From: Spizellomyces punctatus DAOM BR117
Lineage: Eukaryota
NCBI GenBank assembly: GCA_000182565.2
Contig: KQ257452.1
Direction: 5' to 3' (one strand)
DNA length: 64,000 bases
The position numbers and the translations under genes were made by a program. The notes under the pieces are model-generated. The model was not told where the DNA came from. It saw nothing but the letters and a program-made list of their open reading frames with translations, and searched no databases. This document shows positions 1 to 57,944 of this stretch, piece after piece; within the stretch, counting starts at the first letter, position 1, and each line of letters opens with the position of its first letter.

Positions 1-2413
1 ACCCGACCAGTCGCCACCTCCATGAAAAAATCTGCGGCACTCTCTCCTGCAATATAATATATGTTAGCGCTTTTGTCTAAAATACCGATCTTTAATAGAC
101 CCACCTTCCCGCATAGTGAAGCCTATTCTCTCAAAATACTTGATGGCTTCGGCTCTATGACCAAAATAGATGATCCGTCCGCCCTTCCCGAGCAGTAGCA
201 GATCATCAAACTGGTTGAATGCGGCAGGTGACGGAGAGTGTACCACTGCAGCGATGGTCATGAACTGTTCGCGCGCAATAGTATGCAACAAACTGCAGAC
301 TTCGAATGATGTTGCAGAGTCCAATCCGCTGGTGGGTTCATCCAAGAATAAGACACTTGGAGCAGCCACAAGCTCCATCCCAATATTGACCCGCTTTCGT
401 TGACCACCACTAAAAGTGTGAACTGCTGCATAAGAGTCCACATCAAAGTAATCACTGCCACAGATGCTGAACGAACCTGATACCGCGTTCTTCTTCATTT
501 CCAATAACGTTATCCATAATGTGATCCAGTCCTAAAAACGATATCGTCTCCAAAACCAGATCCTTCTTTCTCTTGTTAGACCATTCAACCGGAAGTCGCA
601 TGAGAGCGGAATGCTACAAGGATGCAAATCCGAGTAAGATAATTTGCATCAGGTGATGGAGTACCTCGTCACACGAGCTCACCATCAGGATATCACGGAC
701 AGTCAGCTCTCGTAACATCACATCCTCCTGCGGAACAAATCCAATCAACTTGCGGTACTTTGAGAGTTCTTCCTCAATTCCATTGATGCGTATCGTCCCC
801 GAAGTACGTTTGGCTTTATTGGTAAGCAGAGAAACAAAAGTGGTTTTTCCTGCTCCACTGGGACCCATAACAGCGCAAAGACGGCCAGGTTTCAAGTCGC
901 CAGTGACTCCCTGTACGTGTGATCAGAGTTAGCAATGGCCTGCGGACGTCCTCAGCTCTTTAACATCCATTACCCTCATGATCTCGACGCCGGTGGGGAG
1001 GGTGAACCCCAGGTTCTCGAACTCAATTTCAAATCTCTTGTGTTCATCCGATTTTGCGGGTGGGGAGGACGCGTCACCAACAAAGTCTGGCACATCATGC
1101 TCATCTTCCGAGTCTGACTCCGCGTCGCCAACCAGCAATCCTGTCTTATTTGTTCCAGCCTCCATGATAGCCGCTTTTTGCTCCTCCTTCCCTGCCGCAC
1201 TTGCCATACTTGCATCCAGCCGTTTGCGATACTTTATATTGCGTTTCCTCACCATATACTTGCGGATTTGAAAAAAATGTCGACATTACCACAAAGACTG
1301 CGGCAAGCAAAATTAGGATCCCAATCCGCGAGACCGATTTTGTGCCCTCAGGGCAGTATGCTAAAAACGAGCAGCTGATGGGCTCCACCGAGCCGACTGG
1401 ACACCAGCTGCCGGATGGGCACACATGAACTTCGGCAGGGGTTGGACAGTAGAAGCCTGGACAGCAGTAGGCCGGCTGGTATGTATCTGGCGGACAAAGG
1501 AAACCTGGCGTGCACAAGTTCCGAGTGTTCTCAGTGCCATTGATATTGTCACCAGGCGTTTGGCAAAAGTGCCTAATAACAAAGAAGCGCGCGAGTTAGA
1601 AGCACGAATATTATGGTATCTAGAGCGTATCGACGTACCCAGCTGCACATGTCCAATTAGCTCGCAAATACGTGCAATTCAAGCCAGCTTGCTGTTAATG
1701 AAGCCTGTTAGCTGAAGATAATCTATTGGCATGCTACATAGGGGCGCACCTCCAGTGCAGAAGCCTGAGTCACATCTGCTGCCAGCACGCCTGCGGCCAA
1801 TAAAAGGGAAGACGTCTTCTTGTCGGAATCCATGCCTTTTACCAAATTATCCACCGCGGTTTGGTTACTGGAGAACTGATTAAGGGCATCTGAAACTGTC
1901 TGGTTCTGCGACTGCAAAGGCGTTAGCTAATGCAGTGTTTTTGGGGATCACTCAATATCGCAGACCAACCTGTCTCGAGGTTGTATTGTTGTTATTGTTG
2001 ATGGACGGAGGAACTTCCTGCCTGGTCACCTGATTTTCTGGAAGGAAATTGCCTTGTGGAGGGAAACGATCAGATGGCATTCCGGGAAACCTTTGCGGCG
2101 GCTGTTGACGATCAACTGGAGGGCCAAGCGGTGGGCCAAGCGGTGGGCCAAGCGGTGGGCCAACAGGCGGACCAACCGGCGGACCCACTGGCGGGCCATT
2201 TGGCGGTGAACCAAATGGCGGGCCAAATGGTGGCCCGGGTTCGAAGGGTGGTGAAGGAGGACCGGGTGGACCTGCTGCAGAAACGAATGGCCACGGTTCC
2301 CTCAACGTTTGGGGAGAGTGATCTTGGCGCCATCTTTGTCCGGCGAAGCTGCCGGATGCCATGGACACGGCGAAAAGGAATACAAGCAAGGTTGCCACAA
2401 CATGGCGATTCAT
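1..2413 (-). CDS. ABCG-type ABC transporter with N-terminal signal peptide, Gly/Pro-rich repeats and Cys-rich ectodomain (3' end runs off the window)
   Basis: Exons encode Walker A (GPSGAGKTT), FVPQEDVM, signature SGGQRKRVNIGMEL, Walker B LFLDEPTSGLDS, H-loop VVHSP and NPADFFMEV. Upstream are CPxGxYCP repeats and a TM helix. Signal-peptide-like MNRHVVATLLVFLFAVSMA starts at 2413. Confidence 0.88.
2118..2239 (-). repeat. 12-bp coding tandem repeat (GPPV/GPPL/GPPF units)
   Basis: GGGCCAAGCGGT x3 plus degenerate copies on the + strand; encodes GPPVGPPVGPPVGPPLGPPLGPPLGPPV on the - strand. Confidence 0.9.
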
Positions 2414-3130
2414 CGCTGCACAGTACGAGTTTGAACGGGTGGGGTTTGCGTAAACGGGGGTTCCATCACCCGTCGTCGAAAATAATAAAAACGACGACAA
2501 GCGTTTTGAGGTTGTGCTTTGCTGGCTGAACACGAGGCTCAGCAAGCGCACAGCTTCTTTTGCACAGCCTCCACCATCAATTTCTTTTTGTCCAGATTTG
2601 TCCGAAAATGAACTGCACTGCCACCCGGCGCTGATGAGGTAAGCAGGCGGGGCTTTCGGCGCGAACGGAGTGGGGCGGGCGGGCATTGTGAACGGAGGAA
2701 CCGAGCTTACGACTGTTCCTAAAGCAGGCAAGCTTTGGAATATTGGCATACCAGGGGTCTCTTTGGAGAGTAGAGAATGGTGAATTCACATACGTTGTCT
2801 GTGCGTCAAAGAGTACTCATCAGCACACCCAGGGAACCGACCACAGCCTCCAAAAGGGTGGTTTCAGGGTTGCTTCAATGTTCGGCTTTGGCAAGATGTT
2901 ATCCTCAGCATTGAATTATCAAGGGCATTAATGTGCAGCAATGCCCGCAGGTGCAGCCACTGGAAGGATCCATCAGTGTCCCAGTGTCGTAAGCAGTCAG
3001 GCTATCATATGGTTGGCCCAGTCCGAGCAAAGATCAAAAAGTGACCCACCCTCATTTGTCCGCATCATCTTTGAAAAACCTAGTAAAAACCACACAGAAA
3101 TAGTGAACGACCAGTGTCCTTTAGCAAAAC

Positions 3131-4620
3131 ATGCTTGCGGTTTCGCCATCATCATCTCGAGCATGTTCACCTGCTCCTCCACCAGGCTCGGCAACTTCTC
3201 GTCGGAAGCCAGTGGGGAAATACCGTGGAATGGAAGCCGATACAATGAGTCGATGCGACTCCATCATGACCGATACCTCTACTTCCAGTAGATGGTCGCG
3301 AGGGTTTCGTTTTCGACGCAACACTGGCTCTATCAGAAGGTGCAAGTCCTTCAGTTTGCTAATGGTTCTTTATTTGCTTTGCCTAAAACCACTTTTGTAG
3401 TACCACATCTACCATGAGCAGTCGACAAAAATTGACGCAATTGTTCAAGCGTCTGGCTTTGCGTTTGGGTGTCGGAAGTAACCTCTCCAGCTATGACTTG
3501 AGCATGGAGTCTCAGCATTCAGTTCCGACAAGCTCAGCTGCCTCAGTGGCGGCAATGCAACTGGACGACATCTCCATCAGATGGGGATCTACCTCACGTC
3601 GATACGGAGGAGCCGGAGTCTCCAATATACGCCCCAGTGGTCCTAGACGTATGCAATCTGATGATGCTGCGGCTGTCTGGGCCAATGTGATCGCCAAGTA
3701 AGGACCACCAATGTTATTACAAACGGGTTCTGCTTTTTTAACACTCGCTGTGAAGGCATGCTCATACAACAAAAGGGAGTGCACAGGCACGGGCGTTTCG
3801 TCATTTACTGCAAGAAAGGGACGACGCTCGTGCAGAATGTGTTCGCCTAAAATCATCTGTGGGCAAGCAGGTGCCCAATGGTACTGACACTTTGGGGGAA
3901 ATAGGGAGAATTTGTGGGGATTTGAAAGTGGCATTGAGTTCTTTCAAAGAAAGTTTGCCAGCAAAAGACGCCATTGCAGCACCAGATACAACCGTAGCCC
4001 CGCTGGAGGCTATATATTCTAGACTTGAGGAGCTAACGCAGGCGCTCGAGGTAAGCGTGAAAATGAAAGCATTCGATGTGAACATGGGTATTAAGCGCAA
4101 CACAATGTACCAGCGTGTCATCGAGCCTCAAACCAATAACGAACCCACGAAACCGGTCATCCGAAAGCCATCTGCAAAACCCACCGCTCCATCTCCTCGC
4201 GTCTCACGCCAAAGTTCAGTACGTACCCTAGCGGACACAGCACAAGCCACCCGCATACCGACGCCTGCCTCACAGATGCACACTGAGCAAGGGCAGGATC
4301 TGAGCAATGCGCCACCCACGGAACAACCACCGTCTCAACTGATCACCGCCTTGCCCGACAACAAAACCACTACCGAGGATTCTGATACTTTTGCGCGTGA
4401 CTTGTGTGGCAGAATTGAGAAGGTCTTTGCTGGGAACGAAAACGTGGAAGAGGCAGCTCATGTGGTTACGCCTACACCCAAGGTTCAACCACGCCCCCCT
4501 CGCCGTACTCGCACACTAATTGTCCGCAAGGAGCGAGAACAACCTGATGGCGGGAAGCCCATGGAAGGCTCTGATACTGATAACATCAAAAACGATGACG
4601 TCGTAGCAAGTACATCTTAG
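3131..4620 (+). CDS. Hypothetical Ser/Pro-rich protein with a central coiled-coil-like segment (about 3 exons)
   Basis: ORFs 3131-3400, 3414-3701 and 3859-4620 join through GT-AG introns (~3341-3400, ~3697-3755); no family recognised. Confidence 0.6.
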
Positions 4621-4662
4621 TCCGCGGCCAGTTTCGTGATACGCAAGCTATACACGTCCATC

Positions 4663-6066
4663 TCAAACTGAATATATTTTGCGCAACTCCTCCGTGGTCG
4701 TTGGAAGAAACGTAATAGGGCACCGCTCATGCTCCTCCACGTACTTGTAAATACATGGATAGCAGAAGACATAGCCAGATGGTAACATGGTGGGGTTTGT
4801 TCGTTGTTTTGTACAGAGAGGGCATATTGAAGGATCGGTAGGCAGAGGCACACCTGCAGGATTTGGCTGGACGAAAATTGTGTAAGGTGCTATGCTAATC
4901 CGCAGGGCAACACAAATATATACCTCAAGAGGTTTTGGTGGTGGTGGTATTGGTTGATTGCCCGCTTGTTTATGGTACTCGGAAGTGTACCACCATTCCA
5001 GGAATTTGAAAAAGAATATAGACATTGGCAATGCGTATTTGAGAAAGTCAAACCCTCGTGACACAATGGTTGCGAGCAAGTGTCGCAGGACACGAAGGCG
5101 GGATGCATTTTGTAATGCCGCTTCACTCGCTTTTTTAAGGACTTGTTGGCGATCTTCATGATCCCGCTACATGACAAACGGCATTAATTTTGAAAGTGGG
5201 GTTTTGAAACATTTTCGACTTACATAGTCCTTTGCACCCATTCGGCGGATTTGGAGTCCGCACAGATGAAGCCATGGTGAATAATAGTCCGTCTTGCCAT
5301 ACATGTAGCCAATTTGATACACAAAGATAAAGGCCTGATAGCTGGCGTTTATGTAGGGATATGTCCGTTGGAAGATTTTCTTTGCCAATTTTCGTAAACG
5401 GATGGGCAGCGGTTCCTATTTTACGAATTAGCTTCACTTGGATACGCAGATTCGTGCTTGATACAACCTCCAATGTGCTCCCCTCCTCGACGTTCGAAAA
5501 GAGGTCACCAAATATACGGCTTCCGGGTCCACCTGTAGTGCTCTCGTACAGCTCATCCAGCTTGGTCTTGGCATACGGAAGGGCAACCTGAACCAAACGT
5601 AACGGGTTACCTATGTGGCGCAGACAAAGACATAGGATGTATGCACGAACCAAAAGTACTAAAGATCGCCATATTTGGGAAGAGCTCAAATGTTCAAGAC
5701 CCTTCCTTCGTCGAGTTGGACCTGCTGCAGACCGTTTCAGGCCATAAAAGTGCTCTGCAAAAGAGGCATCTGCAAACAGATACATAAGCAAGCGCACACA
5801 TCGACCAATTTCAAGGTCATCATAGATCTGAACGTACTCCACTCTCTTAGGTAGTGCTGCTCTATTAACAGCATGAGAATTGCAAAAACTTCATCGTGTC
5901 TGTTCACCAGACGGAGAAGATGTCGTGGATATCTCTGTGCGTAAACTGCCAGAACATAGCGTAGTGCAGGCTTCAATAGGTCCCGCATTTTGTCTTGAGC
6001 AATCAACTCGAATACCGAGGGACGATAGACATCTGCGGCAGCCCCAATATTGCTTAAATACTCCAT
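4663..6066 (-). CDS. PEX12: Peroxin 12 (peroxisomal RING E3 subunit)
   Basis: N-terminal RPSVFELIAQDKMRDLLKPALRY, ASFAEHFYGLKR, FFFKFLEWWY, and a C-terminal degenerate RING CPLC...SGYVFCYPCI...CPIT. Confidence 0.95.
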
Positions 6067-47199: not shown

Positions 47200-48731
47200 G
47201 ACTTCCACCCCAGTTCTTTGCAGCCCGCCATCATGGTGCCGGCCCTTCGAGACCGCTTTCACGCCAGCGAACTTATGGAAGCGCATGCGGAGGAAATCTG
47301 TTCATCTTGATGAAGGACGGAGCAAAGTGCATCTCGAAGATGTGACGGTACTCACCACCTTTTGCGGCAGACGTACTCTGTTGGCCTTGCACCAGCAATG
47401 AAACGACTCACCATCACGTCATTTTCTATACTCGGCGGCCTCCTGCTCCTGCAAGTTCACTTGTTTTCTAAATGGCCTAATTGGGGTGATTGAAAAGGTT
47501 CTTGCCAGCGATGGCGAGCTGATCCTCTTGCACTAATGATTCCAAAGTTTCACCGGTCCTCTTGAGTAACTTTCTAAGCCATGGCGCAAGAGATCTGATC
47601 GGCGGCCGGGCTAGTTGCTTCAGCTTTGTTCGGGGATGAGCCGATGGCACGGTCACCGAAGTTGATGGATGTCACCGATAGCTTTGAAATGTCGAAAGCG
47701 ACGGGCTGACTTGCAAATCAAGAAAAGATGTGCACCCATCGCTCGAATTTTTGCCTTGCAGACTTGGGGCAGAGAGGTGAACACTTAGCTTGCGATAGTA
47801 TTACGGTAGATCGTAGCGGGATTCATATTAGTGATAGATCCGGATGCTGTTCGAATGAATATAATGCAGCATGTCTATTGTTTTAATAAGACGTCAGCTA
47901 AATCATGAGGTGCTTCGGCCTTGCCTTCCAACCTTCCAACCTCCACATGGCGATAGACTGCTTCTTAGACTGTTGTCCACGTAGAAACCGAGCCAAGCCA
48001 TCCACTACATCCGACGTAATCTATTGGTGCAGTTCCATTCTTCTTCGCCTGAACCACACCCTATCGTGGCGAACTAGATGGTCTTTAATCAACTAAGTAG
48101 AAAACTGCTACATTTCTATTCGTGATCTGCAATGAGGCCTGGGTTCCAAGCAGTAAAAGCGGCTCTTTCGCGGCAAGAATTGGGGAGTAAAGGTATGCAA
48201 AGCATAGAATGTTAGCAATTGCCGTAAAAGTATTGTAAACTATTGCTGTTGCGCATTCTATCCCGCAACCATTGATCATTGATAGTGTAGAGGTGACAGA
48301 AACTGGCACTAGCTACTACACCAGGGAATAAACCAGCGACAACTGGTTCGGAAAACCTAACTAACTACTACTAGGCAATTATACACGCAATACGTAACGG
48401 TTGTCCTAACCGGATAATTGCCCACCACCACACGCGGTCCCTACTAGGCCTTGATCTGGAACTCTTGATGGCATTGAAGCCAGAGTCTTCGCAACATTGG
48501 GGAGACTCGCAAGCTGGAGGATGTTCAGTGACAAGGCTTGGAGACTAAAAACTGCATGTCAGAAGATGACCCGATGACAAGAAATGCCATTGATACATAC
48601 CAACCAAGCTCAACTAATGTGGCAGCATAATAGTAGGTTTTGTTATCGGATCCGATTGGTTGCCACTGGTTCTGATCACGGTTGCTGTCGGGCGGTCGAG
48701 GTCCTCGGCACCACCACATCGGCGTTCTCAT
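47200..48731 (-). pseudogene. Possible decayed multi-exon membrane-protein gene
   Basis: TATAAAA about 80 nt upstream of ATG 48731, a GTATGT...CTGAC...AG intron and hydrophobic coding fragments, but I could not build a continuous reading frame. Confidence 0.3.
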
Positions 48732-49250
48732 GATTGATGAGAGTTGGGCAGATGCTTGTGAGTCGAGGATGGGTAAAGAGGAAAGAGGGAAGAGACAGCT
48801 AAGGCCGCCCTTTTATAGACCTTCCACATGCGCCTCACCGCAATTTAAAAAAAAAAACATTACATGCATGCCACACCGCAGTTTGGAGAACATTAGCATC
48901 CATGCCTCCTCACCGCTTTGAGCAATAGATGGGGGTTCTGATTATGCGATATGATTAACCGGATTAATCCGGATAATAATGGGTCCTAGTGCCATTTTCA
49001 ATCACCTCCACACTATGTATGAGATAATGATCAATGATCTTGATCTGTCTCTCCCAGTAAGGCACTGTTACAACAAGATTAGGACTAGATCCAACTTGAT
49101 GTAGTAGAAAATATGATTAGTGAACCATGGCTTGGTTTATGTATGAAAGCTGATATTGCTTCATATATTATTGACAATGCAGCAGATGTAGAGTTCATGT
49201 ACATGATATGGTATAACAAGCTCATCATAAGGGAGCGCAGTACCTCTTCG

Positions 49251-52200
49251 TTATCGCACAATACTCAAGGGCCTAGGTGTAGCGGCTCGACGTATTCGTC
49301 TACTTTCCCTTTTTCGCATTTGATCCCGAGGACCGCTCAGAAATACTTCATATATCTGAACCTCGGTCGCACGCCGATCTATCTCTGGTAATGGCCTTGG
49401 AGAATCGAGCACAACATGGACTCCCGGTATCCATGATTTTAACATGTCTCTGGCGACGATGGTCACCTCAGGGCACCCAGTGAAGTCGACTGATTTCAGT
49501 CGTGGTGCTGACTCGCCAAGATATGATGCTACCCTATTGGTGATTCCTCTACAGAATCGCAGGGAGATATACTGCAAGTTCGAGATATTTTCGGTGAGGG
49601 ACTTGATTGCATCATCCGTAAGATGTTCACAATGTGAAAAATCGAGGTGCTCAAGGCGCTGGCTTCCCATGCGCAGCTCCCGGAGACCGTGATTCGTAAG
49701 ACGTTTGCAGAAGCTGAGAATCAAGGTAGTGAGATCGAAGCTGGTAGACCCAATCCACTTCAAACAACGATCAGTAAGTTTTTCGCAATCAGAGAGGTCA
49801 AGATAGCGGATATGCCTAGAAGGTAATGGTGCAGTCCTAGTTAGTCAGGCAAGACCATGGTTAGCATGAAAAAGTTCGGGGTAAGTACCTGCAGTATCGG
49901 ACTACATGAAACATAGTCAAATCAGTCATCTTTGTGCATCTCCGTAGTTGCAGGTGAGTAATTTCACTGGTCCCCGACAGTATCTTTTCCAGCTGCTCGT
50001 CCCCAAAAGACCTGCAGTAGCTCAAGTCCAATCTTTTCAACTTGGACCATTTGTGACGTGCAAACCCCGAGCCCTTTAGTTGTCCACAGTAACTGAGATC
50101 GGCCTCAACAACTCGAGTAAGGTTCCGGGTAAGATAGCCCAGGCCTTTGTCAGTGAATCTCCAAGAATTAGACAATGAAAGGTAGTAGATGTTCGGACAC
50201 AGTGCCGCCAGAGTTTCCAGATCCCGATCTGTAACCCTCCAGCACGTCTCGAGACAAAGCCCAGTGAGATGATCCCCTGTGAGCTCCCAAAAGCTGGTAA
50301 GAGTTTTATGGGTGATTGTTGAAAAAACTGGGGAAAAGTCCAAGGTAGTCCATTGGATTGGACGACGTAGAAGCTCATTCCACCGCTTGCACATTAGACG
50401 CATTTTGAGTCGCTCTAATGGGTTCAGGCATGAAAAGATTATGCGCAATGCCCGTTCCTCCAAATCAGCGATACTTTGCACTTCCGTGGTACTGAGAGAG
50501 CATTGAACTATAGTTGAGGCTCCGCTAATATAGCTGGCGTCGCTTCCCCTTCGACTTGACGGCCCTTCAGGAGCGACTTTTGCTCCACGTTCCCTGCGTT
50601 TGGATGAGCTCGACTTTAACCCTTGAAAAAGCTTGGTAATCCAGCGACGGCCCTAAGTAATAGCATTCCGTTAACCACTTGATGAATGACTCTGGTAGAG
50701 AATCGCGCACATCTTCGCCTCACCGTCTTGGGGACATCATTTGTCTTTTCATGCCCTGAAGGTACGTTTCCTTGTTCTTCAATCAAAAGGGATTGGTCTG
50801 CTTGTCCTGGAGGACACGATTCGTTTTCGTTTGTTACTGGCAGGCTCTCATTCGCAACCTTCGATCCACGTCTGAGAAATCTCCGGACTCCTCTTAGCTG
50901 CTGCGGTTGAGACTCGTCCCTGTCGCTTGCTCTCGCTTTCGTTTTAGCCTTTTCTTTTATGTCAGCCTTGACTGAATCGACAGCGGTATCCCATATTTCT
51001 CTCGCCTTCTTCTGAATGGTATCTGTGTCTACATCGGCATGTAGAGCGCCTTCTGTGGATAGTTTCCGCTGTTCTATCAGGCGAAACCGTTTGTCGGCTT
51101 CCAAGACAATGTTCTGATAACTCTCCGGATATTGTTGGAACACCTTTTGCAGGGCCTCGGCTGTCAAAATCATCATACCACACGACTTGGATGCAACACG
51201 CACGGAAGCGGTTCGAGGAATGCCTCGAAGCAATCCTATTTCGCCAAAGAAACCACCCTCCTTGACAGAATCATAGACTGTTGATCCGTCTTCCGAGATA
51301 ATTTGCACCTTCCCATGCACGATAAAGAACATCTCGGCCGACATTTCGCCCTTATGAACGATCAGTTCCCCAGCTTTCCGTGCGCAGACAGATGTCGTAA
51401 GTGCCACTGTGCGCAAAAATCCGTTCTCGCAGTTTTGAAAAATCGGAACCTGAACAAAATACTGTGAGGCTCAGCTGTGATGTTGGATTTCGTTGTTTCT
51501 ACATACCTTTTTCAACCGTGCTGCCGTTGCGTCAATATCGTACGCCTCAGGCAGTGATGATTCCGATAGTTGATTAACTGCTCTTGTCCTCTTCTGAAAC
51601 AGTCGGTAGTTCTCTTCTGCTCGTGCTTGCATAGCATCTCTCAGCGTAGGATGTTGCCCAAGTACGTGGGTGAGGGCATCCTTCGACAGTTCGTACAGAG
51701 TCGTCTGTGACTTTGAACGGACCGTGGCCGTCCGGTTGATTTCGTAAAAAAGGGCCACTTCGCCAAAGAATGCGTTTGCACCCATTTCAGCATATATGCT
51801 TTTACCATCCTCAGATACAACCTGTACAGTTCCATCCATCACAAAAAACATGCTCCGGGCGACCTCATCCTTACGAATGATTACACTTCCCGGTGGATAT
51901 ACATGAAGCTTCAGGACCAGCACTAATTCGTGAAAGAAGGCGAGAGATCCATCCTTGAAGAGCGGGACCTAAGACAATTGCACTCTTGTCAGAATAGTTT
52001 CTGCTTTTCCTAATGTGACTGCCAGCAGCGTCACCTACGTTTTTCAACCGCTCTCTGACAACTTCCAGCTCCAACTGCATCGCTTGCCGCTTATTTAGCT
52101 TGCTTTTCTCCCTCTCTTCATTGAACTTGAATCTCAGCGTCGCTTCTTCTTGAATTTTCTGGTTAACTTCCGGATACTGCTTCAATAACGTGTCCAGATC

Positions 52201-53334
52201 GTTCTTGGCCAGTTTGAAAACCGCCATTTGATTCGATGTACATCGAACGGACGCAGTTCTTCTCACATCAAAGAATATGCCAACCTCGCCGAAGAAAGAG
52301 CCGGGATGAAATTCAGCAAAAGTTTGGCCATCCTCTTCGCTAAACACTTCCGCCGTGCCTCGAACGACAAAGTACATCTCACGAGCAATGTCATCCTTTC
52401 GAATAATGCGATCTCCGTGCCGATATTGAAGTGGGCACAAGCTTAGAGCTAGCATGTGAAGAAATCCCACCTCACAATTCCGGAAGGCAGGGATCTATAT
52501 AACAAATGTGTCAAAGCGAGCGTAGATGCAATTCCCATTTTTCCTTATCATTGGCATATTACACACTTTCTTCAAATCATTCTGGGTCATTCCTAACTTG
52601 AGCTCTTCACCAAACTCCACTAGCATGGAAGATTCCCGCTGTTTCATGTACGAAGCAAATCGCTCTTCCGCAATATATCGGATTGAGGTGGCCACCTCAG
52701 GATGCCGTTGAATCGCCATCTTCAGGGATTCCCTGGTGAGAGTAAGCACTACGCATCGCCCCCTTGCTCTGCATGATGCGGTTCTGTTGAGGGAATTGAT
52801 CAGCAAACGGCATCTACATCTAGCAACCGCGCTGACTATACCGTGGAACGGAAAATAGGACTCCAATCTCGCCAAAAAACGATTTTTCTGTCATTACATT
52901 GATGACAGTTTCACCTAAGCGACACAAAAAGCTGCTTTTAGCTTCATGGAATCCGTCTTTTTGTCCTGCCCCCCCATACTTGCCCCATGTCAGCCCAACA
53001 GCCACGACTCACCATCCTCAGATACAACCTCAATATCCCCTCTGAATACAAAAAACAAAGCTCGCCCAACCTCGCCTTGCCGAATTACATATGAATTGTC
53101 ATAATATACACGAGTCTGCATCGAATTGGCCAACGTCATCAAGAAATCCTCGTCATGTAGATCCTTGAACAGAATATGTTCGTCGAGGAATTTGCAGATT
53201 GAGAGATCCATTGACGACACACTTTGCAAAGGACTAGATTCCTTTGATTGGGATCTTGGGAGAGTACCACATTCTCTCTGTTCTGCATGGTGGTGTAGGA
53301 TTGACACATTGGGAGAAGATCGACAACCACTCAT
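49251..53334 (-). CDS. Protein with four cyclic-nucleotide-binding domains, an F-box and LRR repeats
   Basis: Four CNB cassettes (FGEIGVLFSVPRTAS, FGEVGIFFDVRRTAS, FGEVALFYEINRTAT, FGEIGLLRGIPRTAS), F-box LEERALRIIFSCL...RLMCKRWNEL, and Cys-containing LRRs (LDLSYC, LILSFCKRLTN, LDFSHCEHLTD). Start uncertain (53211, 53334 or 53454). Confidence 0.88.
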
Positions 53335-53476: not shown

Positions 53477-55410
53477 ATGGTCGGCCGTGGCGCGGCATCG
53501 CTTGGTAAGCAGAGAAACGCGCTGACAGACCTATCGAGGATCCACAACAGACCTTTTGGCAAGACTGTTAACGCACAAACCGCCAAAATGACACTGCCAA
53601 AGCGAGTATCATATCCGCCACCCCCAGTGCCTTCTAAACCTCATGTGCGGTTTGGAGATATCATCAAGGAAACGGCGTTACCTGATACGATTGTGCGGCA
53701 GGTGAGTCGTTCAGGCCATAGGTGGACCAATTCCGCTTTTGTATGGTGTTCTTTCAAAATATGCCTCATCAGAGTTAATGGAAAAATATTGAGCCATTTT
53801 GGATATCCTACCTTTGTATAGTTGCATATTGTCTTTTACTGACATGTTACTTCCTAGACGTCGCTCATGCAATTGACCCGGGTACTGGATCAACTCAGTA
53901 ATTTTTCTCTCTACGCAAATGAGATTGCATCGGGTAAGTCTCCCAATCTTTGTAGACGACCGTTATTGCTGATATCAAGTTTAACGGATCCTTCTCAAAG
54001 ACCTTGTCAAGTCATCAGTGTCGATTTCCGAAAGAGTCGAGGAAGTTCAGAAGCGTATTGATGCTTTAAAGAATGCATCACCAAATGTAGAGGAGAAGCT
54101 GGCAGTAGCCAATCTTGCAGAGTCTATGAATCATGAACGTATGCAAGCCATTTGATTGCTAGTTTGCGATATTTTAATCAATGATTCGGTGCATTAGGAT
54201 TTGACTGGAAATCCCAGCTAAAGCTTGGGAGCAATCTTTTTACAAAAGAAACCGAAGACCCCTCATTGCGGGCTGTTTACGAAACATGTAATGATGCACC
54301 AAACCTATCTCTTATGGATCCATTCAGGGCTGATGGCCAGCCTTGCATGAAAGTGAGCAAATGTTCCCAAATTGACACTTTTTCTTTTTTGAAATGCGGA
54401 GTGCTTACAATAATTGAACATAGTTTTATTCATATCCCGAATTCTTTGCGGAAGAATGGAAGATGCTGATGCAAAAGGAGTTTGATGAAGAACGGAAACG
54501 AAAAAAGGAGCGAAGAGAGCTAAAGAAGAAGGCAAAGGTGGGTGCTTACAAACATCTATTAAATCAAACAATGAAACTCCCAATAATGTGCGTGAAATCC
54601 TAGCTACAACGGCCTACAGCGGCCGGAAAGCTCCAAGTCCAAGAGCTGCAAATCAAGCGCTACAATTCTCAAGGGGAGCTGATCACAGAAGGCGGCGAAA
54701 GTGCCGATACATCCAATGCACCATTCCGAAGACTCAGCATTGGGTCTTCCGATAGTCCATATGGTTCAGGACGCGGTATGCCACCTGCTGTTCGATCGTG
54801 GAATAAGGCGGAAATCAGAACGTCCATTATGATGCGTCCAGCGCTTGCCTGGGAAGATCATGGACGACCGTCGCGGGGACACACTCAAGTTGAGCGCTCC
54901 AAAACTTCACGAACCAGAGTGAATACTCCGCCGCCACCTCCACCACCACCGCCTCCACCATTGGCATTTGCAGGAGCACCCTCCACCGTACCAGCATCTG
55001 GTGGTGCGCCTATTGCGGCAACTGGAGCATCAGCCTCCGCAGCAGCAGCAGGCAAACCTACACTGTCGCCAGCCTTGAGTAACATGAACTTTTTGAACGA
55101 GATTCGTAGCGGACAGGTTTGTTGAAGGATTCATATATTATGTCGATCACCCAGTACTGATCGCATGTACCTATGCCAGTTTACATTGAAGAAGGTGGAT
55201 GCCCCTGTCATGACAGCAGCTGAAAAGCGCTCGGCACGAGATCAAGCAAGCGATGTTGCAGCGATACTGATGCGGCGTGTGGCGATGGAGATGAGTGATA
55301 GCGAAGACGGTAACAGCCCCCTGTTGGTCATTGCATTTGGCTAATATCAGTGAGCTCACGATTTCCATATTGTTTCAGAGGACTCTGCGGACGATGATGA
55401 TTGGGATTGA
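53477..55410 (+). CDS. SCAR: SCAR/WAVE actin nucleation-promoting factor
   Basis: WHD (LDQLSNFSLYANEI...VYETCNDAPNLSLMDPFRADGQPCMKFYSYPEFFAEEWK), basic region, poly-Pro, WH2 FLNEIRSGQFTLKKV, C region DVAAILMRRVAMEMSDSED and acidic DDDDWD. Start at 53477 or 53588. Confidence 0.93.
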
Positions 55411-56145: not shown

Positions 56146-57944
56146 ATGGGAGGGGTCTTGACGTGCTTTGCAACGGAAGCTGCTTGCTGTTTTGGTAAAG
56201 CTGCCTGCAACTGCTTTTGCAAATTATGTGGGACGAGGAGGTGGGTGCAGTTGGTCGATAGCACCTTGGCAGAGTGTGGTGCAGTGACGTGCTTACTGGT
56301 TCATTCCCTGGTAGCTCCACAGCGACAAGAGTCGGATATGCGTTCATGTTTGTATTGACTGCTGTTCTGTCGTGGGTAAGTAGTACATGCGTAGGTACGG
56401 TCTAGGTCTGTATAGCAGCCAGCAACTGATCACGTATTTGCAGATCATGCAATCAGATTGGGCGTCACGCAAACTTAAAAGCATATCCCATGGATACTTG
56501 GAGCTGAAATGCCCACAGGGAGATTGTTATGGGTATCTGGCTGTGATTCGAATATGTTTTGCCACGACGCTCTTTGTAAGTTGTTGAGGATAAATAAGCC
56601 CTGTCACCTGCTTAAGCCATGTATTCTCAAATTCATTGCTTTTGTAGCACGCGATTATGTCTGCTATTATGTATAACGTTAAAAGCAGCCGCGATTTTCG
56701 CTCGTCCATACAGAATGGCTACTGGGCGTGGAAGCTACTAGCCTGGGCTGGTCTCGTCATTCTCAATTTCTTCATACCGAACGAGTTTTTCATGTTTGTC
56801 GGAAAATACCTCGACACGCCAGGAGCTTTCGTGTTTATCCTCATACAAATAGTCCTATTGATAGATTTTGCGTACACATTCAGTGAAACTTTACTGGGTA
56901 AGTATATTCTTCAGTGGAAAAGGTCACCCAAGTCTCACGTTCTCATCTTCATGCAGAAAAATGGGAGGAGAAGCAGGACAAAAGGTGGCTTGGCTTACTG
57001 CTCGCCATCACATTTGGCGCTTTTCTCTGCTCGATTGCCTTGACTGGTGTCATGTACGCGTGGTTCGGTAGCAGCGCCTGCAAGCTCAACCAGTTTTTCA
57101 TCAGCTTCAATCTTATTCTCTGCCTGATTGTCACCGCCCTGTCTGTTGCCCCACCTGTCCAAGAGGCGAACCCGAAGAGCGGGCTGGCGCAAGCAGCAAT
57201 GGTTACTGTGTACGCCACGTATCTAGTTGCTAGCGCCATTGTCTCTGAGCCTAACGACAATGGGGAGAACGTCTGCAACCCGACAAATAAGAGCGGCAAA
57301 ACCGAGACGACAACACTTGTACTGGGATCCCTCTTCACCTTCCTGGCCCTAGCATACAGTACCACACGTGCGGCAACAAAAGGTGATGTGCTGACCACAA
57401 ATGGGGACGATGAGGCTAGCCTCCCTTTGATCAGCGAGCAGCCTTCTGGGAGGTCATCTCATTTGCGATCAGCAGTGGAGAGTGGCGCGCTCCCATCCCG
57501 CGCGTTGCATGACGATGACGACGGAGATGATAGCGCATTTGGGGTTCCAGATGACGATGAGAAAGACGGAGTTCAATACAACTACTCCTTTTTCCATATC
57601 ATCTTTTTATTGGCGTCAATGTACCTGGCGATGCTGCTTACTGGGGTAAGTTGTGTGTTTACTTCGCTGGAAGCCTACTCTTGTCAGTAACAATTTTGTA
57701 TTGTCCGCCTCCTAGTGGGATATGGTTGACAAGACTGATGGCGTTGCGGTCGTTGGTAAGAGTATGGGTGCGGCGTGGGTCAAGGTCGTGTCAAGTTGGC
57801 TCGTCTTGCTACTTTATGTGTAAGTGCAAGCCACTGCTATTGTTGTCGAATATCTGTGCGCGTGCTTACAATGTATCCATTTGCAGGTGGACGCTGGTTG
57901 CGCCTGTGTGGCTTCCTGACCGCTTTGACCAATATGGGCTTTAA
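56146..57944 (+). CDS. TMS1: Serine incorporator family membrane protein (SERINC/Tms1)
   Basis: ACCFGKAAC, CYGYLAVIRICF, RSSIQNGYWAWK, FILIQIVLLIDFAY, NPKSGLAQA, YNYSFFHIIF, WTLVAP. Confidence 0.95.

Follow-up and report, generated by a model that had tools for sequence, protein, structure and literature searches.

The window considered here is a stretch of 64,000 nucleotides from Spizellomyces punctatus DAOM BR117 (contig KQ257452.1; G000:C3:1545219-1609218 within the 24.1-Mb genome). On its minus strand, at 53334..49251, lies a gene predicted to encode a single chain of 1194 aa that comprises four cyclic nucleotide-binding domains (CNBs), an F-box and a run of leucine-rich repeats (LRRs). 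Judged by its sequence, this gene is a member of the LR_CC family, namely of a four-CNB zoosporic subfamily that is paralogous to FbxA of Aspergillus nidulans and FBX-19 of Neurospora. We propose that its product may act as a cyclic-nucleotide-binding partner of Skp1 whose output depends on the ligand. To this reading, which draws on pocket and domain signatures as well as on analogy with relatives, we assign a probability of about one half. Within a known, barely studied family, the features that appear to be new are four specialised pockets, a separate LRR lineage and a degenerate F-box.

Domain architecture and subfamily

Pfam was run on single exons, with cut-offs of 27.5 bits for cNMP_binding and 20.5 bits for the F-box. 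CNB2, CNB3 and CNB4 score 63.8, 74.9 and 60.5 bits, respectively; CNB1 is interrupted by two introns and is recovered in pieces (21 and 15.8 bits). The F-box scores 27.1 bits and LRR_6 39.5 bits. In the intact ortholog P0001, from Spizellomyces sp. 'palustris', the domain count gives four CNB stretches with 239 bits. The chain consists of CNB1 (aa 50-183), CNB2 (aa 202-335), CNB3 (aa 354-486), CNB4 (aa 508-640), a linker (aa 640-811), the F-box (aa 812-861) and, from aa 881, ten Cys-type LRRs with a period of 26 aa and one repeat of 24. All four phosphate-binding cassettes (PBCs) read FGE-x8-RTA, and the pairwise identity among CNB1 to CNB4 is 32-37%. Pfam and a reading of the motifs therefore bear out the four intact cassettes, the F-box and the Cys-type LRR run described in a first-pass annotation of this DNA.

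AlphaFold2 models P0001 (33 sequences; mean predicted local distance difference test, pLDDT, 77.4; predicted template modelling score, pTM, 0.40) as four beta-roll domains that carry long C-helices, followed by the helices of the F-box and by a solenoid. A fixed arrangement of the CNBs relative to the LRRs left no sign in this model or in that of the two-CNB protein P0135 (72 sequences, pTM 0.54), which provide no evidence either way. In Foldseek comparisons the C-terminal half matches FBXL2 and FBXL17 in SKP1 complexes (template modelling score 0.73-0.75 by target), and the CNBs match PKG, the PKA regulatory subunits and Epac, although the tandem arrangement superposes poorly. In the ESM Atlas, the nearest clusters consist of CNB/F-box proteins of ascomycetes (0.93) and of generic FBXL proteins.

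The LR_CC family was defined by CNBs in tandem that are followed, at the C-terminus, by an F-box and a leucine-rich domain; it occupies one table row with 148 sequences and no function, and its distribution is stated there as 'metazoans and fungi' (Kannan et al. 2007, PMC2246266). The window protein likewise has tandem CNBs, F-box and LRRs in this order within one chain, and the PBC consensus of the family, GEIGVLLDPPRTATVRA, closely matches its CNB1 (PMC2246266). It differs in having four CNBs and in falling into a separate F-box/LRR clade. Our homologue search returned 374 proteins at E<=1e-20 among 8000 candidates, of which the best 120 are listed and considered here. The best 52 comprise 40 proteins with four CNBs and an LRR match, three with four CNBs and no LRR match, and nine with fewer CNBs. 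All named ones among these 52 are from zoosporic fungi (Spizellomycetales, Rhizophlyctis, Batrachochytrium, Chytridiales, Polychytrium, Synchytrium, Gonapodya, Neocallimastix, Olpidium and others); about 14 further four-CNB-type fragments lack a taxon assignment, so that the restriction to zoosporic fungi refers to named matches alone. Below the best 52 follow proteins with two CNBs, an F-box and LRRs from ascomycetes, Mucoromycota, Dissophora, Saitoella, Paraphelidium, Pigoraptor and ichthyosporeans. Relatives with fewer CNBs had been expected in other fungi by the first-pass annotation. No animal protein combining CNB, F-box and LRRs occurs among the named matches in the best 120 of 374.

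For comparison within and between the subfamilies we used an alignment of 33 four-CNB members chosen from the best 52 (alignment A1) and a set of 72 FbxA-type rows. Within A1 the CNBs are the best-conserved parts (mean identity 50-60%), followed by the LRRs (44%), the F-box (34%) and the linker (16%). The conservation of the LRRs points to a conserved partner, and we infer that the solenoid binds one.

A FastTree phylogeny of the F-box/LRR part (52 chosen rows, 435 columns, midpoint root) divides the family into two branches with a support of 1.0. The window gene groups with the four-CNB proteins; a paralog in the same genome (L027; G000:C9, plus strand, about 2800-5485) groups with ascomycete, mucoralean, aphelid and holozoan proteins. 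L027 has one CNB with RTA and the lid Arg, as well as LRRs, and its F-box is degenerate, giving no Pfam F-box match. Blyttiomyces, Polychytrium and Polyrhizophydium likewise harbor one protein from each of the two subfamilies. When 113 CNB repeats were placed in one tree, the repeats of each of the four positions clustered in a clade of their own (0.90-1.0), with those of Gonapodya and Olpidium included. CNB1 groups with CNB-A of the two-CNB, FbxA-type subfamily (0.94), whereas supports are low for the origins of CNB2 to CNB4, so that the tree speaks neither for nor against the duplication of an A-B pair. Taken together, the two trees suggest that the window gene diverged as a paralog long ago and that its array of four pockets is fixed. 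The best scores of an F-box/LRR profile outside the subfamily are those of two-CNB members (215-223 bits, in a pool biased by the search). We also considered the window gene as the FbxA ortholog; this assignment was rejected, as L027 of the same genome takes that place and the separate clade has a support of 1.0.

Several related proteins were observed along the way. The linker of L027 contains the motif RRRASVAVW, which it shares with Pigoraptor, an aphelid and Mucoromycota and which resembles the inhibitor site of PKA regulatory subunits. A further locus (L028; G000:C16, plus strand, about 1800-3400) encodes about three CNB stretches, at least two of them with RTA, and gives no F-box/LRR match; similar proteins with three and six CNBs occur in other chytrids (P0053-P0056, P0065). 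Two four-CNB models are extended, P0005 with a kinase (Irineochytrium) and P0019 with WD-type repeats (Polyrhizophydium), and are probably merged gene models.

Pocket residues and the probable ligand

The PBC Glu and Arg are retained (Glu/Arg) in 31/31, 31/31, 33/33 and 33/33 of the 33 A1 rows for CNB1 to CNB4, respectively; the misses are gaps, except for one Ala. The C-helix lid Arg, equivalent to SthK R418 and HCN2 R632, is present in 32/33 rows in each of CNB1, CNB2 and CNB4, and CNB3 carries Asn in its place in 33/33. With these signatures, the four channel-type CNBs very probably bind cyclic nucleotide. SthK is the best PDB match of CNB2 (E 2.5e-17) and the best single-domain match of both CNB2 and CNB3 (66.8 and 74.9 bits). 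The likeness to SthK, HCN and CNG channels extends to the same PBC, the C-helix Arg and a spacing of 41-42 residues. The window protein differs from them in the absence of a channel, in having four domains in one soluble chain, in the Asn of CNB3 and in the lack of the CNG-type Asp.

The first-pass annotation had leaned towards cyclic guanosine monophosphate (cGMP) on account of the RTA motif, a lean that is weakened by three comparisons. SthK, which has the same motif, is opened by cyclic adenosine monophosphate (cAMP) and antagonised by cGMP despite its Thr378 (PMC4308110), and the Thr is found in HCN2 as well. The contacts in SthK are G367, E368, R377, T378 and R418, with Leu422 at the position where CNG channels carry a cGMP-selecting Asp (PMC4308110); at this position none of the 33 rows has Asp or Glu, the window protein having Tyr, Asn, Phe and Ile in CNB1 to CNB4. 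In PKG, guanine is recognised by an Arg on beta5, while the Thr after the PBC Arg contacts guanine N2 (PMC4412288). This beta5 Arg, ten residues before the PBC Glu, occurs in none of the 33 rows, and the window protein has Asn, Ala, Ala and Asp instead. The position adjoins adenine N6 in SthK and HCN2 and is occupied by Asp in CNB4 (32/33) and by Asn in CNB1 (28/33), residues that would suit cAMP. Furthermore, the FbxA-type set, most rows of which are from Dikarya, keeps the Thr in CNB-A of 69/72 and in CNB-B of 47/72 rows. The cGMP pathway is apparently missing from Dikarya (PMC4046227), which weakens RTA as a hint at cGMP.

On these residues we consider cAMP the somewhat more probable ligand; cGMP seems unlikely, and so does a division of cAMP and cGMP between different pockets. 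We note that two findings speak against a pure cAMP reading. All named matches of the four-CNB form come from fungi that have swimming spores, and the genome encodes a cyclase with the guanylyl-type Glu motif, albeit with Ala at the expected Cys (motifs according to PMC9730499). Both would fit a cGMP effector of the swimming stage, with cGMP from zoospore guanylyl cyclases triggering stage-specific protein turnover, as would the Thr that follows the PBC Arg in each of the four pockets. However, this Thr is shared with the channels named above, the PKG and CNG determinants are found in 0/33 rows, CNB1 and CNB4 carry their Asn and Asp near adenine N6, and Blastocladiomycota, which have the best-documented fungal cGMP pathway, are missing from the named matches in the best 120 of 374. 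A role as cGMP effector of the swimming stage is improbable in our view.

The cyclase mentioned (L006) is one of three class III cyclase matches (L005, L006, L008) located within 8 kb at G000:C13:298938-306581.

Possible coupling of the cyclic nucleotide-binding and F-box halves

The C-terminal half resembles known F-box/LRR receptors. As in human FBXL2 and FBXL17, which are SKP1-bound, the F-box is followed by 26-residue Cys-type LRRs, and the segment aligns with FBXL2, FBXL17 and Skp2 among PDB entries (best E 2e-18); these receptors, however, have no CNB. The hydrophobic core and the C-terminal Cys/Trp block of the F-box are kept, and Pfam detects an F-box at E<=0.01 in 27/33 A1 rows. By sequence and by analogy, the F-box is likely to bind Skp1. 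The tandem CNBs recall the PKA regulatory subunits and PKG, including the four-CNB PKG of Plasmodium, where tandem CNBs control a linked output and RRxS motifs lie near the CNBs. In contrast to these, the window protein lacks a kinase, an N-terminal inhibitor site and the PKG beta5 Arg, and its tandem packing deviates by a root-mean-square distance of 12-19 A. The linker contains two RRxS motifs, at aa 703 and aa 786, and RRxS is found in the linker of 13/33 four-CNB rows (2.6 expected) and of 68/72 FbxA-type rows (7.0 expected), counts that derive from related and not independent sequences. RRxS is the usual PKA site.

Two distinct Skp1 genes are present in the genome (L001 on G000:C6 and L002 on G000:C21).

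Experimental data exist for apparent members of the other subfamily. A. nidulans Fbx19/FbxA (AN4510, 923 aa) is the ortholog of NCU08642 (PMC9744329), the Neurospora FBX-19, which is annotated as a cyclic nucleotide-binding domain protein (PMC4545925). FbxA is mainly nuclear and was recovered in 3/3 SkpA-GFP pull-downs with 12, 15 and 24 unique peptides (PMC9744329). Its deletion affects catabolite repression and xylanase output (PMC6838226, PMC5468973). The Aspergillus two-CNB matches in our search have lengths of 916-933 aa, close to that of FbxA, but are only 22% identical to the window protein over the F-box/LRR columns. The two-CNB form also differs from it in retaining the F-box Pro, and RRxS is near-universal in the FbxA-type set. 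The passages of these sources that deal with FbxA contain no mention of its CNBs or of nucleotide binding. The description of such proteins as little characterised in the first-pass annotation was thus too modest, given a family defined in 2007 and an apparent ascomycete member with knock-out, localisation and pull-down data. For a four-CNB F-box protein, or nucleotide binding by any F-box protein, we found no report in the titles and abstract starts of the Creative Commons literature, a search that does not extend to subscription journals.

Which form a ligand-dependent output might take is constrained by the linker. Hung on a long disordered segment, the CNB array cannot push rigidly on the LRRs. 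Instead, the ligand would close the C-helix lids of the CNBs, and the closed C-helices would make or break a docking surface, whose change may alter the engagement of Cul1 or of a target by the tethered F-box/LRR half. In this manner four differently tuned pockets could regulate the F-box/LRR output, and RRxS sites of the PKA type in the linker would supply a second cAMP input. The narrower claim that the ligand switches degradation through a Skp1-Cul1-F-box (SCF) ligase is plausible, though less likely than not. About as tentative is a general proposal in which LR_CC proteins constitute a direct second-messenger switch on ubiquitin ligation. Here the cyclic nucleotide would close the lids and license the Skp1-bound F-box for SCF entry or for substrate; the four-pocket paralog would act as a threshold detector, or as a coincidence detector for cAMP and cGMP, and would set off proteolysis when the life cycle moves from one stage to another; the two-pocket form would be a PKA-independent cAMP effector in moulds. 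Ligand-licensed SCF entry, if true, would explain why FbxA is found on SkpA and not on CulA in resting hyphae.

A number of observations weigh against a Skp1 partner with ligand-dependent output. Residues 639-766 of the linker in P0001 have pLDDT <50 and are predicted to be disordered, and the spacing between CNB4 and the F-box varies from 84 to 311 aa across members. With a linker this long, variable and disordered, no direct allosteric path is visible. At the positions of Pro and Glu in Skp2 the window F-box carries Glu and Arg, and it thus lacks the Pro seen in FBXL17 and Skp2; this hallmark residue is present in 7/33 four-CNB rows (absent from 26/33) versus 53/72 FbxA-type rows. RRxS is absent from 20/33 four-CNB rows. 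Ranked by summed score, the PDB matches of CNB3 and of the whole model are headed by Plasmodium PKG, whose single-domain scores are low. FbxA was found in 0/3 CulA-GFP pull-downs, while GrrA and Fbx23 appear in all six SkpA and CulA ones (PMC9744329). Finally, FbxA was assigned to the family via annotation and length, not via its sequence, and the FbxA-type subfamily, from which the experimental data derive, is 20-25% identical in the F-box/LRR part.

The absence of the F-box Pro and the pull-downs would both be accommodated if the protein were a Skp1 partner outside SCF, a cyclic-nucleotide-regulated adaptor, for example for a phosphatase, that involves neither Cul1 nor ubiquitylation. The authors of the pull-down study indeed state that F-box proteins found with SkpA only may act outside SCF (PMC9744329), and the pull-down of FbxA itself contains SkpA, PphA and AN1010 but not CulA (PMC9744329 supplement), as the sole sheet of the file with PphA (6 unique peptides) and AN1010. 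Against this, only 17 of the 67 sheets contain CulA, and no Fbx23 sheet does, which leaves little weight to its absence from one pull-down. The CulA pull-downs were made from vegetative growth only, so that conditional assembly fits them equally, FbxA-type proteins mostly retain the F-box Pro, and all of the pull-down evidence comes from the paralog. A change of this Pro stabilised SconB of Aspergillus fumigatus and did not stabilise Fbx15 (PMC5029927). We regard an adaptor outside SCF as rather unlikely. Of the SCF receptor proposed in the first-pass annotation, then, the F-box/LRR fold stands and Skp1 binding is likely; the part concerning SCF is set against the missing Pro and the 0/3 CulA pull-downs of the paralog.

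A different objection is that the two halves are merely tethered: the F-box/LRR half would be constitutive, and the CNB array would buffer nucleotide, localise the protein or recruit partners while leaving the ligase unswitched. The nature of the linker agrees with this, and CNB number ranges from 1 to 4 across the family while the F-box/LRR half persists. Yet the fusion has been retained from Pigoraptor and ichthyosporeans to ascomycetes, and each pocket has a fixed signature of its own, a stronger constraint than buffering would call for. Mere tethering appears improbable. The alternatives considered here are not mutually exclusive.

If the ligand controls the F-box/LRR output, as we favour, the family would link cAMP or cGMP to protein turnover without the need for a kinase. 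It is an old family, with members in Pigoraptor, ichthyosporeans, aphelids and fungi, and those of Aspergillus and Neurospora already have knock-outs and glucose-repression phenotypes. For zoosporic fungi, the four-pocket paralog would be a candidate effector in signalling by cyclic nucleotides. Should the pockets not regulate the ligase, the window protein would be an ordinary member of a catalogued family.

In the supplement of PMC9744329 (file 11), PphA (AN6391) and the uncharacterised AN1010 are exclusive to the FbxA sheet and are candidate partners or substrates of the family.

Exon structure and neighbourhood

The first-pass coordinates of the gene hold exactly: an in-frame ATG lies at 53334, and the stop codon ends at 49251. 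Between them, seven open stretches are spliced to 8 exons by seven introns of 57-98 nt, all GT-AG. Three in-frame ATGs are candidate starts (53454, 53334 and 53211). P0001, the closest database protein, begins at the equivalent of 53211 and is 92% identical over 1153 residues. Its alignment is gap-free from this ATG on and thereby settles every one of the seven junctions, among them the acceptor 49816 and the junction 50723/50653 that connects the CNB half to the F-box half. P0001 is itself a gene model; splicing in the window genome is predicted.

All exons and introns are on the minus strand. Exon 1 (53013..53334) encodes the first half of CNB1 and is followed by intron 1 (52915..53012; 98 nt, phase 1), across which the match to P0001 has no gap. 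Exon 2 (52842..52914) carries the CNB1 cassette with G122, E123 and the first two bases of the R132 codon, which is split by intron 2 (52784..52841; 58 nt, phase 2); the end of CNB1, with T133 and the C-helix R173, lies on exon 3 (52567..52783). Intron 3 (52495..52566; 72 nt), intron 4 (51969..52038; 70 nt) and intron 5 (51450..51506; 57 nt) are of phase 0 and occupy the identical repeat position at the boundary between CNBs. CNB2 (E274, R283, T284, C-helix R325) and CNB3 (E426, R435, T436, with Asn476 replacing the C-helix Arg) consequently lie on symmetric phase 0-0 exons of 152 and 154 codons, exon 4 (52039..52494) and exon 5 (51507..51968), an arrangement that fits growth of the CNB array through exon duplication. 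Exon 6 (50724..51449) encodes CNB4 (D570, E580, R589, T590, C-helix R631) and the first part of the linker with the RRxS at aa 703. Exon 7 (49889..50652) contains the remaining linker with the second RRxS, the F-box (nt 50475-50326) and LRR 1-5, and exon 8 (49251..49815) contains LRR 6-10, a low-confidence tail and the stop codon. Between the latter two lies intron 7 (49816..49888; 73 nt, phase 2). Its acceptor was set at 49816, since this choice alone gives a gap-free match of the frame to the ortholog; the AG encountered first, at 49837, was rejected, as it adds 7 residues that are not in the ortholog.

The frames of CNB4 and the F-box differ and are linked only via the predicted intron 6 (50653..50723; phase 0), which raises the question of two adjacent genes or a mis-joined model. 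This intron is a canonical one of 71 nt with GT-AG ends and a branch-like site at -22, the ortholog aligns across it with no gap, and the first Met of the F-box frame sits within the F-box. The fusion is also shared by 40 relatives. Four of these proteins (P0020, P0024, P0028 and P0033; 1048-1267 aa) are encoded on contigs of 3.5-4.7 kb, hardly exceeding the coding sequence, so that the fusion exists elsewhere as a nearly uninterrupted frame. The two-gene explanation is close to refuted, and the single gene claimed in the first-pass annotation is upheld.

A 747-bp element at 48276-49022 of the window, starting 230 bp beyond the stop codon, resembles a miniature inverted-repeat transposable element (MITE): inverted repeats of 37 nt (84% complementary) form its ends, and a 30-nt palindrome lies inside. 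It has a high depth in DNA contigs, and at least 35 places match nearly the whole query at 78-100% (40 of 203 candidates scored). On the other side, a head-to-head neighbour on the plus strand (about 53588-55410) begins about 250 bp from the ATG at 53334, with a possible shared promoter. This neighbour looks like SCAR/WAVE, with a basic stretch, polyproline, a WH2-like segment and an acidic end with Trp. The best PDB match of one of its exons is human WAVE1, which is weak (E 0.029), and two stretches give no Pfam match. In the same window, an exon of a Serinc-family gene (244.8 bits) is found on the plus strand at 56902-57687.

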